Positions 8,094 to 50,112 of a DNA stretch of 64,000 bases are shown piece after piece (within the stretch, counting starts at the first letter, position 1; each line of letters opens with the position of its first letter). The position numbers and the translations under genes are program-made. The notes beneath the pieces were generated by a model. It was given only the letters and a program-made list of their open reading frames with translations, searched no databases and was not told where the DNA came from. The stretch lies in NCBI GenBank assembly GCA_949430125.1, contig CASQMQ010000025.1:6297-70296 (forward strand). Direction: 5' to 3'. The DNA is from an uncultured Pseudomonadales bacterium. Lineage in GTDB: Bacteria > Pseudomonadota > Gammaproteobacteria > Pseudomonadales > Pseudohongiellaceae.

Positions 8094-10265
8094 CTTGAGG
8101 CTCATACAGAACAATTACAGCACGCGCATGAACTCATCGAGCACTCTATCTTCTGGCGGATGACCTATCCTCTGCGCTTGTTGAGGAATGCGGTCGCTCC
8201 AGGCAGCAAGAAGCAAGATGCAGTGAAGGAGATACTGGCTATTGAGAATTCCGAGCAAGCGACGGGACAGATCGAAGGACAGCAACTAGAGAAGCAAAAG
8301 CTCGATAATTCGGCCAAGGGCGCGTTAGATAAGTTTTTAACGTCTACAGAGCAGTTACAGTTTCCAGAAACTGAGACCCCGCAACTTTCTATTATACTCG
8401 TGTTCTACCAGCAGGCACACCTCAGCTATCTCTGCCTGCAATCACTTCTTGAATTTGCCAACGTTTGTTACGAGCTAATCATAGTAGATAATAACTCCAC
8501 TGATGAAACTGCCAAACTTCTAAATAAGATTGATAACGCCACAATTATTCGCAACGCAGATAATTTTGGTTTTGTGAAGGCAGTAAATCAAGCAGCAGGA
8601 ATAGCTACAGGCGAGTACATCCTTCTTCTTAATAATGATGCACTTATAGAAAAAAATACCTTGTCAAATGCCCTGCAAGTAATCGAGTCAGATAAATCTA
8701 TTGGTGCTGTGGGCGCCAAGATCAAGTTGCTCGATGGCAGTATACAGGAGGCAGGAAGTATTATCTTCAGCGATGGAGCCTGCCTCGGCTACGGTCGCGG
8801 CAATGTATCGGACAATTATGAGTTTATGTTTCAGCGAGATGTTGACTATTGTTCCGGCGCTTTTCTGCTCTTCAGAAACAGTAATTTCAAAGCCCTCGGC
8901 GGATTCGACCTTGACTATGCGCCCGCCTACTATGAAGAGTCTGATTTCTGTATTCGTTTGCAAAAAAAGGGACTGCGTATCGTCTATGTACCCAGCTCCC
9001 AGATCACTCATTATGAATTCGCGAGCTGCGGCGGGATGGAGAATGCACAAAAACTGCAAGCCAAACATCGTGAAGTACTTTGCACTAAACACGCGGACTA
9101 TTTAGCGGAGCAATTCGCGAACGACGACAGTAAAGTTCTCCATGCTCGCACGCGCAACAATTTTCCAAACATACTCGTAATTGATGACCGGGTTCCCCAC
9201 CCTAGCCTTGGGTCTGGGTATCCTCGATGCTCAAGCATGCTTTTCGAACTGAGCAAGATGGATCTCAATATCAGCTTATATCCTCTTCAGTTTCCTGAGG
9301 AGCAATGGGACGACGTCTACAATACTCTGCCCAACACGATTGAAGTCATTCTGGAAAGTGGCCGTGACGGCTTGCAGTCGTTTCTAGCAGAGCGGAAAAA
9401 TTTTTTCCAATTCATCGTAGTGAGCCGTGTCCACAATATGGAATTCTTTAATTATTGCCTGAGTCTGGATCCTGACCTGTTGGGTGACGCCAAGATCATC
9501 TACGATGCTGAAGCCGTGTCTGCTCCTCGCGAAATTCTGCGTATGGAATTTCACGGCGAAGCCATGTCCGCTGAAGATCAAGCAAAGCTCATCGAAAAAG
9601 AGTTGCAACAATCTAAGCTGGCGGGAAAAATTGTTGCTGTATCAAACAACGAGGCCGAGATTTTCAAGCAACACGGCTATAGCAATACCGTCGTGCTCGG
9701 TCACACCATTGCCAGCAAACCTGGAAGGAACGAATTCAAGCAGCGCAGCGGCTTACTATTCGTGGGCGCGCTTCGAGACGAGGGCTCACCGAACGTCGAT
9801 TCATTGCTCTGGTTTCTGATCAATGTCTTCCCAATACTCGAACAGGCCATTCCCGACATAAAGCTCAATGTTGTTGGTGACAATTCGGCGCCTTCGCTGG
9901 CAACCATTGGCAAAGACAACATCAACTTCACCGGTCGTGTCGACTCAATTGAGGAGATCTATAACATCTCTCGCGTGTTCATTGCTCCGACGCGTTTCGC
10001 AGCAGGCATCCCACACAAGATTCACGAGGCCGCAGCGAAAGGATTGCCTTCGGTGACCACCCCACTGCTCGCGCAGCAGCTTGGATGGAAGGACTCAAAG
10101 GAATTACTCGTGGGCGATACACCTGAAGCCTATGCAGCCCAATGTATTAAGCTCTATCAGAACGAGAAGCTCTGGCAGGATGTTCGAGATGCGGGCTTAG
10201 CAGCGATAATCGAAGACTGTTCGCAAGAGACTTTCCGAAAAAAACTAGCCGGACTTTTTAGCTAA
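8064..10265 (+). CDS. Coiled-coil, GT2 and GT1/GT4-like glycosyltransferase, the C-terminal fragment of the disrupted multidomain GT
   Basis: It is in the same frame as 6978..7943 (offset 1086 nt). In-frame repeat-encoded sequence resumes in unit 3, at about 7975. The GT2 region is LSIILVFYQQ...IIVDNNSTDET...LLLNNDA. The C-terminal GT-B-like region is LLFVGA...NINFTGRVDS...IPHKIHEAAAKGLP. The only canonical start is TTG 8064, and it has no Shine-Dalgarno sequence. Confidence 0.75.
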   Translation: MEQQTQNFKNLEAHTEQLQHAHELIEHSIFWRMTYPLRLLRNAVAPGSKKQDAVKEILAIENSEQATGQIEGQQLEKQKLDNSAKGALDKFLTSTEQLQFPETETPQLSIILVFYQQAHLSYLCLQSLLEFANVCYELIIVDNNSTDETAKLLNKIDNATIIRNADNFGFVKAVNQAAGIATGEYILLLNNDALIEKNTLSNALQVIESDKSIGAVGAKIKLLDGSIQEAGSIIFSDGACLGYGRGNVSDNYEFMFQRDVDYCSGAFLLFRNSNFKALGGFDLDYAPAYYEESDFCIRLQKKGLRIVYVPSSQITHYEFASCGGMENAQKLQAKHREVLCTKHADYLAEQFANDDSKVLHARTRNNFPNILVIDDRVPHPSLGSGYPRCSSMLFELSKMDLNISLYPLQFPEEQWDDVYNTLPNTIEVILESGRDGLQSFLAERKNFFQFIVVSRVHNMEFFNYCLSLDPDLLGDAKIIYDAEAVSAPREILRMEFHGEAMSAEDQAKLIEKELQQSKLAGKIVAVSNNEAEIFKQHGYSNTVVLGHTIASKPGRNEFKQRSGLLFVGALRDEGSPNVDSLLWFLINVFPILEQAIPDIKLNVVGDNSAPSLATIGKDNINFTGRVDSIEEIYNISRVFIAPTRFAAGIPHKIHEAAAKGLPSVTTPLLAQQLGWKDSKELLVGDTPEAYAAQCIKLYQNEKLWQDVRDAGLAAIIEDCSQETFRKKLAGLFS

Positions 10266-43954: not shown

Positions 43955-44325
43955 TAACCTTGCTATAGCTGCGCAGAGATTCTAGGCAGACGTTCACTCT
44001 GTTTGCGTGACCTTTACGTAATCTCTGCGTGACTCACTTACATACTCCGCTTTGCTCTGCCGTTGAGCTAGAGCTGGCTAATCTCGTAGCCCTTCTGTGA
44101 GACCAAGTCTAACAACCCGTATTTCGAAGAATCGACTCCACTGATTTTTGCATTTCTACTTCTTGCTACTGATAACTACTACTTCTTTAAGCAATGCCGA
44201 TTGAGCGACTTGAATTAGCTATCTACTCAGGTATTTACTGCAAGGTTTTACACTACTAAGTGTTAAAGGTAGCATGCTCGCATCTAACGCAAAAGCGAAT
44301 CAAGGCGCAGGCCGGCAAACCCATC

Positions 44326-44685: not shown

Positions 44686-45093
44686 GCTGTGTCTCGAGAG
44701 CCGCTACAGTAACTAGTTAAATGCTAGACCAGCTCACTAATCCGTTACGAGCGGATTGATCTTGATATTGCTGGAAGCCTTCTCAATTAAATTTCAGAGG
44801 ACTTTACTCAACAGCTGGCCATTTGCCTGCCAATTATTTGCTACGACACTTTACAGTGCTGGAATTGTGTTATATAAAATCTCTAGGACTTTGTTAGTGA
44901 TTCTAACGGGGGGAATTTGCTAACAATACTTAGCTACCCTGGCATTAAAAAAGGAGGTGATCCCATCAATTATCAATCTATTAAGGGAGCCTCCAGTTAC
45001 TTTATCTAAGTAGGTAGTTAAATACTTGATCGGGTAATTGGAGAGGCATCGTCGATACTAGTTCGCGATTCCTTTGCTCCCAGTAAGTACTAG

Positions 45094-45155: not shown

Positions 45156-46000
45156 CTAGTGAGTGCCGAGGTAACTTCGCAGTCTTGCTGGAAAATTCTT
45201 CTTGATCAATGCCTGCTGCAAGTTGCATTCTTGGGCTGCTTCAATTTCTTTCAGAAAAATTACTTTGCCAAACTCCAATACGGCTATAGGAATACCATTC
45301 TCGTAAAGCACTCGGTTCTTACTCAGTCTCAAGAGATTACGGTTAGGGGAAATTAGATTTAAAAGATTTAGCGGATCTACCGCTGAGAGACTGTAGTATC
45401 TAGGCTTGTTCGAATTGACTTGTTTCTTAAATTTGCGCAGAACGTCCACCGTTTCAGGGCGGGCAAATTGCTCGCCACCAACACCTGCTACAAACCGGCC
45501 GCCACGAATAGTGCCACGTAGCTCCATTTTACGCAGTGCCTTTAGCAAAACGCGCCACGGAGGCAAAAATAACTCTCTCTCCAACACACCGCGGAATATG
45601 ACTCCCCAGCGCTGTAAGTAGATCCCGATAAGCCTCTCGACTTGTTCCTCATCGAGAACATGCCAGTGCCGACTATTCGTGTGAGGTTGACCTAGCGCCT
45701 CGTCTGTTTCCAACAAGCTCCACCTGCCCGCATCTTCAACGCCGAACATGGCCTCGACGGCCTCGCCTTTTATGCGCACTTGGCTTCTTTTTTATTCGGG
45801 AGTAGCAGTGCACGTAAGCCGGTAAAGCTATCGCTAGTTATCGAAACGAGAGTGAAGACCCCAAGGTTTGCAATAGTCACAGCGAGAGCGCTAGCTGCTT
45901 GGACACAGCGCAAGAACCCAACATTCGGGCTCCACACTCATCAGCGCTCAATCTCCAGCTGCCTCAAGCGAATTGACATGCCTGGAAGACCTGGGCTAGG
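45156..46000 (-). pseudogene. lhr: C-terminal stump of an Lhr-type large ATP-dependent helicase
   Basis: ORF 45156..45779 contains YLQRWGVIFRGVLERELFLPPWRVLLKALRKMELRGTIRGGRFVAGVGGEQFARPE, the Lhr C-terminal signature. Upstream, in another frame, is LVSITSDSFTGLRALLLP, preceded by stops. The roughly 1200 codons of helicase core that should lie further upstream are absent, and lepB starts at 46027. The upper boundary is approximate. Confidence 0.7.
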
Positions 46001-46026: not shown

Positions 46027-46728
46027 ATGAATGATCTAAATAAAGCCAGTATTACCGAGCGTCTCGGCAGCAACCTGAATCTGTTTTGGAAGGAAAATAG
46101 ACAATTTTTCCTATTGCTGACCTGCATCGTCTTTTTCAAGAGCGCAATCGCCGACCTGAGCTCTATCTCCGGCGCCTCTATGCAGCCTACGCTACTCGAT
46201 GGCGACAAAGTCTGGGTGAATAAGCTCGCGTACGACATAAAGATACCCTTCACCGAGATATCCCTAGGCCAGCTCTCCGATCCTAGTGGCGGCGATGTAG
46301 TCATCATCGACTCTAAAAAGGCTGATAAGCGACTTGTTAAGCGCATTGTCGGCGTGCCTGGCGACACCATCTACATGCAGAACAACGCCCTTGTTATCAA
46401 TGGCGAGGCCGCGCATTACGAGGTTCTCTCCAGAGATGACGATTCCATTATCATTCTAGAAGAGCTCCCGGATAAGACGCATCAGGCGCGTTTGTCCAAC
46501 CGCTTCGTCAGCCGAACCGCTCGCAGCTATGGACCTACCGTGGTGCCTGAAGGCCAATACTTCGTGTTGGGAGACAATCGCGATAACAGCGCAGACAGTC
46601 GTGTCTACAGCTTCGTGCCCAGAGAAGAAATCATCGGCCGCTCAAACTCCGTGGTTTTCTCTCTCGATAGTGACAATAACTATCTACCGCGTGGCGAGAG
46701 ATTTCTCGCAGGCCTCGATCAAAATTAG
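46027..46728 (+). CDS. lepB: Signal peptidase I
   Basis: SGASMQPTL (catalytic Ser), VKRIVGVPGDTI (catalytic Lys) and GDNRDNSADSR; 233 aa. Confidence 0.9.
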   Translation: MNDLNKASITERLGSNLNLFWKENRQFFLLLTCIVFFKSAIADLSSISGASMQPTLLDGDKVWVNKLAYDIKIPFTEISLGQLSDPSGGDVVIIDSKKADKRLVKRIVGVPGDTIYMQNNALVINGEAAHYEVLSRDDDSIIILEELPDKTHQARLSNRFVSRTARSYGPTVVPEGQYFVLGDNRDNSADSRVYSFVPREEIIGRSNSVVFSLDSDNNYLPRGERFLAGLDQN

Positions 46729-46946
46729 ACATTAATCCAAATTCAGCCCTGTGCCGCTGAATATGCAGCGCTACAGTGCTTCTATGGCCAATATATGGCG
46801 CACCACATTGAAGCAGCTCATCAAATTCGAAGTAATTTAACTATCTTGAAATAAAACCGGCATGAATCGGGTATTGTTAGTAATGCTTTAACTCGCTCAA
46901 AAAGCGAGGCTAGGGCAGAAATTTTGTTAAAACTCGCGAGGTAGTC

Positions 46947-47534
46947 ATGAATCAAAAAACCCAACCCCACGTCTGCGTGATGAGCAGATTCTTGCTTACC
47001 CTGATGTTGCTTGGGAGTTTCCAGGTTTCGATGGCACAGGATTTCGTCTGGGCTCCAGACTTTCCAGTAGGCGCATCGGTTCCGGAGATCTCAGCACAAG
47101 ATCAGGATGGCAATGTTCAATCATTTGACGGCTTAAAAGGCGAAAAGGGCATGCTCTTAATGATGAGCCGCTCCTTCGACTGGTGACCATACTGTAAAGC
47201 TCAGCTCGTGCAGCTGACCGAAATCAGTGATCAGATAGAAGCAATGGGCATCAATGTTGTTGCCCTAACCTTTGATTCAGTGGAAACATTGAAGACCGTG
47301 CAGGAAGATCAGGACATTCAGTTCCCTCTTCTTCACGATGAAGAAGTCACCCATGTGAATGCCTTCGGTATTCGCAATTTAGACTACGAACCAGGGCATC
47401 GGATACACGGCATACCGTATCCAGGCATATTCCTGATCGATCCAAACGGAGTCATTAAGGCCAAGTTTGCAGAAGAGAGATATCAAGATCGACCTCCCTT
47501 CGATGACATACTTGAGGCCGTCTCCGGACTTTAA
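46947..47534 (+). CDS. Secreted thioredoxin-fold redoxin (AhpC/TSA-like) with an in-frame TGA at the first Cys of CxxC; candidate selenoprotein
   Basis: ORFs 46947..47186 and 47208..47534 are in the same frame. The joined protein reads signal peptide ...LLMMSRSFDW-TGA-PYCKAQLVQL...FPLLHDEE...GIFLIDPNGVI. TGA (47184-47186) occupies the WCPYC cysteine position. There are no other lesions, and a terminator follows. Confidence 0.6.
47190..47229 (+). promoter_or_regulatory. SECIS-like stem-loop downstream of the TGA
   Basis: The upper stem is tcagct (47201-47206) pairing with agctga (47212-47217), with loop cgtgc starting 20 nt after the TGA. The lower stem is tactg (47190-47194) pairing with cagtg (47225-47229), with one G-U pair and internal loops. 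Confidence 0.35.
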
Positions 47535-47544
47535 GCGCCGTAAA

Positions 47545-47580
47545 ACTAACGGGGAGACGAAAGGCTTCCCGCTAGTTTTT
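47545..47580 (+). terminator. Intrinsic terminator after the redoxin gene
   Basis: The stem is actaacgggga (47545-47555) pairing with ttcccgctagt (47566-47576), with one mismatch and one G-U pair. It has a 10-nt loop and is followed by a T run to 47580. Confidence 0.6.
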
Positions 47581-47861: not shown

Positions 47862-50112
47862 ATGGAACTTTTCCCCCACCCTAGCTTTAAGCTCAGCACG
47901 AGTCTTGTTCTCCTCGCGCTCGTTATCACGGGATTCCCCTCGTTCGAACTTCATGCGCAGTCCCTGAGTAATTACAACATACCCAGAGTGAATACTCAAG
48001 CCGCGAATTGATGGCCAGATAGATCAGGGAGAGTGGAGTCAGGCCACGCGCATTCCCGTCAATATAGAAACCAATCCGAATGACAATGTCCCCGCCGAGG
48101 TGGAGGCGCAGGCCCTGCTCATGGAAGATGGCGAGGTGCTGTACGTCGCCTTCATCGCTCTAGATCCGGACCCCGATCAAATCCGCGCGTTCTATAGAGA
48201 CAGAGACTCCATGTGGAACGATGACTGGGTGTCGATCGTTCTGGACACCTTCAACGACGAAAGACGCGCGTTCGAATTCTTTGCCAATCCCTATGGTGTG
48301 CAGGCGGATGCCATTCAAGACGATGTGAACGGCGATGAAGACGAATCTTGGAATGCCATATGGGACAGCGCTGGACAGATTAACGAAGATGGCTATGTCG
48401 TAGAGATGGCTATTCCGATGAAGCAGTTACGTTTTACGCCTAGCGAGAACAACCAGACTTGGGGCATCGATCTAGTCAGATTCTATCCGCGTGATCGAGG
48501 TACGCGAATCGCCAACAATCCACGAGATAGAAACATATCTTGTTATATCTGCCAGATTAGCAAGGCAGACGGCTTTGCCAATCTAACTCGAAGTAGAAAT
48601 CTCGAGATTATTCCGACTGTAACCTCCACTGCGGTAGAGAACAGAAACCCAGCCATGGGCGGTTGGGATAGCGAGAGTATCGATGCAGAAGGCAGCCTCG
48701 ATGTGCGCTGGGGAATTTCTCAAGACTTGTATCTCAACGCGACACTGAATCCCGACTTCTCTCAAGTCGAGGCCGATAGTGCACAGTTAGATATCAACAA
48801 CACTTTTAGTCTGTTCTTCCCGGAGCGACGAACTTTCTTCTTAGACGGCGCAGACTACTTCGATACCTTTGAGCGACTCGTGCATACGAGAAACATTTCC
48901 GATCCGGACTATGGCCTAAAACTCACGGGCAAGAGTGGAGATCACACCTATGCTCTGCTCACTGCCAACGATGTAAACACGAGTTTCTTGATACCCCGTA
49001 GCCTAGGCTCCAGCGTTGCCTCACTCGGTGAGGTTGAATCCAAAGTTGCGATTGGCCGCTATCGCTTCGATATTTTCGAGAATTCCACTATCGGCGCCTT
49101 AATTACCGATCGCCGGGCTGACGGCTACAACAATACCGTCAGCAGTGTCGATGCAGTGCTCAGGCCTACTGACCAAGATTCGATCTCTATTCAGTCCATG
49201 CACTCCAGCTCTGACTATCCAGCCCTCATACAGAGCCAATACGGGCAGGCAGGCAGCCTTAGCGATACTAGCCAGCGTCTGGAGTATCGCCACAATGACC
49301 GGCGCTGGGACTGGCGCTTGGGCTATACCGACATGGGGGATGACTTTCGTGCGGATCTCGGCTTCGTGAATCGAGTCGATTTCAAGTTTGTCGTGGCGAC
49401 AGTAGGACACACCTGGCGCGGCGAATCGGACGACTTCTTCAATCTCATCCGGGTCGCGCTAGACTACGACAGAACACAGGACCAGTCAGGCCTGCAGCTC
49501 GAAGAAGAATTTGAAGTATTCCTCAATATGAACGGCCCCAAGCAGTCATTTCTCAGTGGACTATTCGGTGGTAGCGAGACCTACTGGAACGGCAAATATT
49601 TCGATGAACAGTTCAATCAGCTTAGAGTTGGGTTTACTCCCAGAGCGAACTTGCGCCTGAGTGCCCTTATACGAGTTGAGGATATTGTCGACTTTGCCAA
49701 TACTCGCCTCGGCAGATCGAAGCGCTTTGGGCCTAGCGTCAATTATCGCTGGGGCAAGCATCTAGAGTTGGATCTAGATCATACTCTGCAGCAATTCGAT
49801 GCAGACGGCGGCAGGCTATTTACCGCGAATCTGACTGACTTAAAGACGACGTACCAATTTAGTGCGCGCAGCTTTCTTCGCTTCACGCTCCAATATACGG
49901 ACAACAAACGTAATCAGGACCTCTACGTCAGGTCAGTGCAGGCACGCACTAAGCAACTCACCACACAGCTTCTCTACAGCTATAGATTCAGCGCCGCCAC
50001 CCGTTTCTTTATCGGCTACTCCGATGCCGGCTTTCAGAACGACACTTACGACGCCATCGAGAAAACCAACCGCACAGTATTCGCTAAGTTTAGTTATGCC
50101 TGGCTCCCCTAG
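47862..50112 (+). pseudogene. DUF5916/CBM9-like outer-membrane protein with a frameshift at about 48006-48011
   Basis: The ATG at 47862 gives the signal peptide MELFPHPSFKLSTSLVLLALVITGFPSFELHAQ...RVNTQAAN, ending at TGA 48009-48011. The +1 frame continues from 48007 with IDGQIDQGEWSQATRIP...LYVAFIALDP (CBM9-like). It then runs into the 670-aa ORF 48100..50112, which ends in a beta-barrel-like ...FAKFSYAWLP. Confidence 0.7.

Follow-up and report, generated by a model that had tools for sequence, protein, structure and literature searches.

A very probable UGA-encoded selenoprotein of the peroxiredoxin-like family in Pseudohongiellaceae

Described relatives of the locus

The selenocysteine (Sec, U) insertion sequence (SECIS) of Escherichia coli fdhF, an experimentally defined SelB-binding element, and the peroxiredoxin-like (Prx-like) selenoproteins catalogued from marine metagenomes provide the closest described systems for a gene found in an uncultured member of the Pseudohongiellaceae. 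The gene occupies positions 46947-47534 on the forward strand of a 64,000-nucleotide stretch of contig CASQMQ010000025.1 (assembly GCA_949430125.1), referred to here as the window, and it is interrupted in frame by a TGA at codon 80. The analysis reported here leads to the view, held with high confidence, that the gene is intact and encodes a U-x-x-C selenoprotein of thioredoxin/peroxiredoxin fold, predicted to be exported, in which UGA is read as selenocysteine.

Proteins of this kind have been on record for some time. The class 'Prx-like 1', which comprises pfam00578 proteins with a UxxC motif, was represented in the GOS data by 225 Sec members and 2,740 cysteine (Cys) homologues (Zhang and Gladyshev 2008, PMC2398784), and UxxC Prx-like proteins rank with the most abundant selenoproteins of the sea. 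A preliminary description of the locus had stated that redox-active Cys/Sec pairs in thioredoxin-fold and Prx-like proteins make up the commonest class of bacterial selenoproteins in marine metagenomes. Within the '#Prx-like 1' block of that dataset (PMC2398784) stands JCVI_READ_1091141068545, a protein of 195 residues containing the segment ...SRSFDWUPYCKAQLVQLTEISDQIEAMG..., to which the window protein is 82% identical over 195/195 residues without a gap. The two proteins share the predicted signal peptide, the SRSFDW-U-PYC motif and the hairpin-bearing QLVQL segment, and no essential difference separates them, the window gene being the orthologue from another species. The window protein belongs to 'Prx-like 1' by virtue of its PF00578 domain and U-P-Y-C motif, as well as by its close homology to this listed member.

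Remoter Prx-like members with DWUPYC or DWUPFC are contained in the 2005 Sargasso Sea set. Additionally, a 2026 review (PMC13188914) describes a 'Prx-like thiol:disulfide oxidoreductase' (PF00578, UxxC/UxxU, example WP_010940744.1) as 'predicted with high confidence'; the window protein resembles this class in its Pfam family, its UxxC placement and its predicted-only status, a likeness that is one of description and not of comparison with the sequence of WP_010940744.1. The same review makes no mention of a signal peptide or of the periplasm. A literature search for reports of selenocysteine or selenoproteins in Pseudohongiella or OM182 returned nothing relevant, and neither name appears in the supplements of the 2016 survey of selenium utilisation. 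Altogether, this protein family has been listed among predicted selenoproteins since 2008, and in the window gene it has a correctly identified but ordinary representative. To the 2008 record the present analysis adds a host lineage (Pseudohongiellaceae/OM182), evidence that Sec is fixed throughout the family, support for the SECIS from covariation, and the existence of Cys revertants.

Conservation of the UGA codon and its downstream hairpin

All coordinates below are those of the window and refer to the forward strand unless marked otherwise. Translation of 46947-47534 gives 79 codons, a TGA at 47184-47186, 115 sense codons and a closing TAA, with no other lesion, the peptide around the in-frame stop reading ...MSRSFDW*PYCKAQL...; read through, the frame is a complete coding sequence of 195 residues for a Prx-like (AhpC/TSA fold) UxxC oxidoreductase with U at position 80. 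Codon 80 falls on the first cysteine of a W-C-P-Y-C motif, which appears as WCP[YF]C across homologues, and the translation with Cys substituted at codon 80 is recognised by Pfam as AhpC-TSA PF00578 (E 2e-25) and Redoxin (E 8e-17). The preliminary description of an open reading frame (ORF) of thioredoxin fold, with a predicted signal peptide and with TGA at the first cysteine of its CxxC motif, is borne out. The same holds for its remark that no second lesion follows the TGA and that a terminator closes the gene, since an intrinsic-terminator-like hairpin (47550-47571) followed by a T-run (47550-47580 in all) begins 16 nucleotides (nt) past the stop.

The TGA is a fixed character of the family. 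When each GTDB species was represented by a single genome, the scan retrieved 196 relatives, and in the best 80 of these, which were examined, TGA stands at codon 80 without exception (80/80). These best 80 are Pseudohongiellaceae/OM182/Pseudomonadales metagenome-assembled genomes (MAGs) with 57-96% identity, and TGA and the hairpin described below are jointly present in all 80 of these best-matching species genomes and in 11 metagenome contigs. Counted over the window together with the genome loci and the first of the metagenome contigs, 92/93 family genes have TGA, and every one of the 73 distinct downstream sequences drawn from the 80 species genomes and the metagenome contigs carries it (73/73). 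As a guard against sequencing error, PMC1088965 asks that a UGA be conserved in at least two different sequences, and such conservation is present in the TGA-form family.

Equally important is the residue with which the codon alternates. Cys forms were sought by a DNA-pattern scan of metagenomes, and 56 remoter family members were found with TGC or TGT at the corresponding position, most of them 30-57% identical and two of them closer (64% and 72%), so that codon 80 pairs Sec with Cys at the redox-active site. Searches at the protein level returned three types of match, namely full-length proteins with WCPYC, full-length proteins with 'WWPYC' or 'WWPFC', and fragments of 108 amino acids (aa) beginning just past the motif. 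The preliminary description had named TGC or TGT in the closest relatives, together with the lack of a conserved hairpin, as the pattern of a nonsense pseudogene; the closest relatives carry TGA and the hairpin instead, and in the alignment of Cys and Sec homologues that it had proposed the two features co-occur, the remoter homologues having TGC/TGT. As a separate observation, the complete Pseudohongiella chromosome OZ245834.1 (L085) holds tandem paralogues, of which the copy at 9414 is a TGA form with the hairpin, and the copy at 10247 is a TGT form reading QLTQL (CAACTCACACAGCTG) without the hairpin. The TGA form is also carried by the complete chromosomes OZ242251.1, OX638341.1, OZ254078.1 and OY762274.1, while P. 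spirulinae belongs to the Cys-form lineages.

The frame past the TGA is translated, and purifying selection acts on both sides of the codon. In pairs with unsaturated synonymous divergence, the ratio of nonsynonymous to synonymous substitution rates (dN/dS) is 0.098 over codons +1 to +112 and 0.151 over codons -47 to -1, and a second in-frame stop occurs in 0/86 TGA-form genes. Past the TGA, the window gene itself differs from its closest relatives with nonsynonymous proportions (pN) of 0.00-0.02 and synonymous proportions (pS) of 0.08-0.31.

Downstream of the codon lies the putative bacterial SECIS core (47201-47217), which is composed of a 6-base-pair (bp) stem, 47201-47206 with 47212-47217, and a 5-nt loop, CGUGC, at 47207-47211, and which falls within codons +6 to +10, encoding Q-L-V-Q-L. 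The stem, UCAGCU/AGCUGA, pairs perfectly and begins 14 nt past the UGA, as the preliminary description had placed it, the loop begins 20 nt past the UGA, and the core hairpin is part of the minimum free energy (MFE) structure. The bSECIS model of PMC13188914 sets a loop of 3-9 nt, a stem of 4-16 bp and a UGA-loop spacing of 16-37 nt, with G in the first two loop positions and mostly G/U next, and an MFE <= -7.5 kcal/mol. The geometry of the hairpin (loop of 5 nt with G at loop position 2 and then U, stem of 6 bp, spacing of 20 nt) lies within these limits, in keeping with the SECIS model given in the preliminary description. In E. coli fdhF the SECIS is likewise a hairpin inside the coding sequence immediately 3' of the UGA, with G-U in the apical loop, and this loop starts 18 nt past the UGA (GGUC) as against 20 nt in the window gene. 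The fdhF element exceeds the window hairpin in both length and stability (-16 kcal/mol over 60 nt) and contains, besides its GGUC loop, a bulged U, whereas in the window family conservation is limited to the 6-bp stem and the CGUGC loop.

A lower stem of 5 bp (47190-47194 with 47225-47229), put forward in the preliminary description as an extension of the hairpin, can indeed form in the window sequence, with one G.U pair, and is included in its MFE structure. As a conserved element it was rejected: in the family it is 72% paired, two of its pairs are disrupted in a majority of sequences, and it is missing from the RNAalifold prediction.

Comparison between species reveals that the core hairpin is selected as RNA, through both synonymous freezing and compensatory change. 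Among 81 distinct TGA-form genes, codons +6 to +10 are nearly always CAG CTC GTG CAG CTG, with a normalised synonymous entropy of 0.067 against a mean of 0.85 over 102 other degenerate codons, not one of which (0/102) lies at or below 0.1; they constitute the five-codon window of lowest entropy in the gene. Furthermore, when 71 distinct segments of 63 nt were aligned, the 6-bp helix proved to be 98.1% paired, with none of its inner five pairs broken in any sequence. Double-sided changes are seen in three stem pairs: G-C has become A-U in L072 (47204 with 47214) and L074, C-G has been replaced by U-A in L086, where Leu gives way to Phe, and the outermost pair has changed from U-A to C-G.

One further feature of this region concerns the window and its relative L001, which are identical over 223 nt across the TGA and the hairpin (47038-47260; L013 was also compared) and differ beyond these 223 nt at 29 sites within 270 nt. 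The pattern looks mosaic, as from recombination, and exceeds what constraint on a SECIS alone would explain.

The fate of the hairpin in lineages that have given up the UGA is also informative. The nearest Cys forms are nested among the Sec forms, and three of them, L214 (422), L215 (1448, P0005) and L217 (361, P0015), have TGC together with a fully intact hairpin, that is, a 'fossil SECIS'. In L127 (P0007) the hairpin has been lost through third-position synonymous changes only (GTA CAA CTA), and in L216 (10238, P0011) it has been lost with an additional Val-to-Ile change (ATA CAA). The constraint on the hairpin disappears along with the UGA, as expected of a SECIS. The UxxC selenoprotein proposed in the preliminary description is therefore supported by the conservation of the TGA, by dN/dS and by selection on the hairpin.

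Counter-evidence and alternative readings of the TGA

Several results weigh against a selenoprotein at this locus, the first group of which concerns the strength of the hairpin in a single sequence. The core is small, folding with -6.7 kcal/mol alone, and the MFE values of -12.4 kcal/mol over 62 nt and -10.0 kcal/mol over 45 nt both include the non-conserved lower stem. Compared with shuffled sequences, the 62-nt fold is unremarkable (z = -0.9), and an equally good hairpin by the published bSECIS rules follows 1.9% of the 2190 TGA triplets in the window; with the loosest version of these rules, 57% of the window TGA triplets pass. Moreover, the hairpin owes part of its pairing to the use of CAG and CTG codons for Q-L-x-Q-L: CAGCTG is self-complementary, and the segment coded as CAG CTG nnn CAG CTG folds unaided. 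All five inner pairs are kept in 11/45 distinct Cys-form homologues (Cys-form loci L092-L211). Since the single-sequence signal is modest, the weight of the evidence rests on the comparison between species, in which the Sec forms are set apart by their frozen sequence and fixed CGUGC loop, and not by mere folding ability.

The second group concerns the decoding machinery and existing models. No selA, selB or selD was found by tblastn with E. coli SelA, SelB and SelD (from NC_000913.3) in the window and the fetched loci, 2.3 Mb in total, a search that reaches over the window and ~2.3 Mb of flanks and says nothing about the remaining parts of the genomes. tRNA genes were likewise found neither in the 64-kb window nor in 60 related loci. 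No Rfam family reached its gathering threshold anywhere in the window, and with the cut-off relaxed to E = 10 the segment 47100-47320 yielded nothing beyond chance matches to snoRNA and miRNA families; similarly, no NCBIfam selenoprotein model above its cut-off covers the window protein. Selenium incorporation and export are, for their part, predicted from the sequence. In-frame TGA codons with stop-free runs of 50 or more codons to either side number 12 in the window, and those other than 47184 are taken, from their sequence context, as out of frame with or antisense to other ORFs.

Among the alternatives, the one that survives best, though very unlikely in our estimate, is that the UGA is decoded as a residue other than Sec, either by hairpin-stimulated near-cognate read-through (Trp/Cys) or by lineage-specific recoding. 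In its favour stands the fact that the Sec machinery was not observed in the window and the fetched flanks, a gap which, given the conservation data, leaves it a small probability. Additionally, nine database proteins (P0001-P0004, P0008, P0014, P0016-P0018) are stored with W at codon 80, but the DNA of the loci concerned (L001-L011) reads TGA at that position, and translation of the genes with table 11 does not reproduce the stored W-containing proteins; these W calls are an artefact of the gene caller, which apparently chose a table-4 model on short contigs. TGA is also the ordinary stop of 10/51 long ORFs in the window, so that the genetic code is not reassigned. Cys is the sole alternative seen at this codon, which occupies the nucleophilic position of CxxC, and such a pattern is the signature of Sec; in addition, the hairpin matches the geometry of a SelB-type SECIS, and the literature classes the family as selenoproteins. 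The broader supposition, by which this family of marine Gammaproteobacteria would recode UGA without canonical SelA/SelB/tRNA-Sec, for instance by inserting a different residue under stimulation from the hairpin, is similarly improbable.

Less probable still is a nonsense pseudogene, in which a change of TGC/TGT to TGA would have inactivated a CxxC redoxin amid ongoing gene loss from the genome. The preliminary description had raised this possibility on the grounds that the window is rich in pseudogenes, and broken neighbours do surround the gene when it is compared with sister genomes. Relative to L001 and L013 (89-94% nucleotide identity), the window has three clean deletions, at 44120-44123, 44719-44754 and 45842-45853, through which a traB/gumN-family gene (~0.8 kb), pilZ (~0.55 kb) and ~3.9 kb of lhr are missing; what remains of lhr is an ORF of 207 aa at 45156-45779 on the reverse strand with the WH4_Lhr domain only. 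In the next gene, which encodes a CBM9/DUF5916 protein (47862-50112), an extra A at 47998-47999 (CAAG, as against CAG in L001 and L012) shifts the frame, so that the gene either is a genuine frameshift pseudogene or has been misread in sequencing. The sister contigs L001-L005 (~95% protein identity), however, show the same split into 79 and 108 aa next to intact neighbours (Lhr of 1539 aa, CBM9/DUF5916 of 750 aa), and since relatives with intact neighbours share the TGA, it is ancestral, predates the lesions and is not one of them. A TGA common to at least 80 species, the low dN/dS past it (0.10), the lack of second stops, the synonymously frozen hairpin codons and the near-zero pN of the window gene at appreciable pS all argue against a dead gene, a reading that the conservation data in effect refute. 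As an observation on the same neighbourhood, lhr is entirely absent from L216, a Cys-form lineage, in which traB and pilZ are kept.

Just as improbable is a pair of genes, namely a secreted peptide of 79 aa ending at the TGA and a protein of 108 aa starting from GTG 47208, as called by JGI: database entries P0088 and P0115 are indeed 108-aa calls from the equivalent of GTG 47208, the fragment being named 'peroxiredoxin' by JGI and the locus split into 79 aa and 108 aa, but the pieces are two halves of one thioredoxin-fold domain, the seven codons between TGA and GTG (P-Y-C-K-A-Q-L) are conserved as protein, including the invariant second Cys, Cys-form homologues are single proteins of 187-200 aa, and the GTG sits in the loop of the conserved hairpin.

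Protein architecture, hairpin origin and implications

With a selenoprotein as the strongly favoured reading, the remaining features of the gene can be placed in relation to known redox proteins. A likely Shine-Dalgarno sequence, GAGG, lies at 46938-46941, 5 nt before the ATG. Residues 1-30 (46947-47036) make up a predicted Sec-type export signal peptide, recognised by eye from a basic n-region, a hydrophobic core (FLLTLMLLGSF) and an S-M-A c-region, the cleavage site being expected to precede QDF; the N-termini of homologues are variable and hydrophobic and finish with a small-x-small end, after which comes an invariant (Q/K)(D/E)xxWAP. Directly 5' of the selenoprotein gene stands an S26 signal-peptidase gene of 233 aa (46027-46728), an arrangement also present in L001-L003, L215 and L216 and hence a case of conserved synteny.

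The AlphaFold model of P0005, a Cys orthologue with 73% identity, has a thioredoxin/peroxiredoxin fold (predicted local distance difference test score, pLDDT, 85) from which an N-terminal helix, residues 8-27, stands detached, and the U/CxxC motif opens the helix of residues 81-99. In the window gene, the redox motif U-P-Y-C (47184-47195) correspondingly marks the start of helix alpha-1, which begins at residue 81 in the model. The best matches of the P0005 model in the PDB are Bcp4, AhpE, BcpB and ResA-type structures, with target-normalised template-modelling (TM) scores of 0.83-0.88 among the first six, and by sequence the nearest solved structures are BCP/PrxQ and AhpE peroxiredoxins and ResA (E 5e-8 to 1e-4). 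The window protein has the same fold as BCP/PrxQ and AhpE (3hjp, 5enu, 1xxu) and as ResA/TlpA/DsbE (4nmu, 1su9), at an identity of only 16-26%, and, like ResA/DsbE, it is predicted to be extracytoplasmic.

The active site sets the protein apart from peroxiredoxins proper, whose signature is P-x-x-x-T-x-x-C plus a conserved Arg. In the HMMER alignment the peroxidatic Cys of BCP-type peroxiredoxins falls opposite Cys83, the second cysteine of the motif, but the Pro expected at -7 from Cys83 is Ser76, the Thr expected at -3 is Sec80, and the Arg that precedes the ...TFLID strand in 5enu is missing, being aligned to Tyr/Pro. Because the signature Pro and Thr and the Arg are absent, the active site is a thioredoxin-like CxxC type on a peroxiredoxin scaffold and not a canonical peroxiredoxin centre. 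The best NCBIfam match is the SelL-related redox protein NF040769, which shares a Prx-like fold and a Sec redox motif with xx spacing; its score of 52.7 bits is well under the cut-off of 120, which places the window protein outside that family, and the motif is UxxC in the window protein as against UxxU in SelL.

Thioredoxin-fold chemistry suggests how such a protein would operate. During translation, the hairpin at 47201-47217, acting as a SECIS, would recruit SelB.GTP.Sec-tRNA(Sec) to the ribosome, and UGA 47184 would be decoded as selenocysteine. Removal of the signal peptide would leave a mature periplasmic protein of ~165 residues, presumably a thiol:disulfide-type oxidoreductase that may also reduce peroxides. 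Located at the N-terminal end of helix alpha-1, Sec80 would serve as the nucleophile attacking the disulfide or peroxide of a putative physiological substrate, Cys83 would resolve the intermediate as a selenenylsulfide, and a periplasmic reductant would recycle the enzyme.

The history of the hairpin can be outlined from the distribution of Sec and Cys forms. In a rough neighbour-joining tree, rooted at its midpoint, the root is a Cys form, the Sec forms make up one clade, which corresponds to one gain, and ~5 reversions follow, the parsimony minimum being 6 changes. The SECIS appears to have been exapted from the intrinsically palindromic coding of a Q-L-x-Q-L helix motif (CAG CTG nnn CAG CTG), and this palindromic coding may have pre-adapted the family for the acquisition of a SECIS. 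Exaptation of this kind would explain one basal gain of Sec from Cys and ~5 reversions that left fossil hairpins behind, and we rank it as likelier than a non-canonical recoding of UGA.

Existing knowledge is unchanged in that UxxC Prx-like proteins were already recognised among the commonest marine selenoproteins and the family was catalogued in 2008. The practical value of the finding lies partly in annotation, as dozens of Pseudohongiellaceae/OM182 MAGs are represented by fragment or W calls in the protein collection that was searched. Beyond annotation, the family offers ~80 species with a near-invariant minimal SECIS, three independent compensatory changes and revertants at varied stages of hairpin decay, and this set of loci can help to calibrate bacterial SECIS models and to study the exchange between Sec and Cys.

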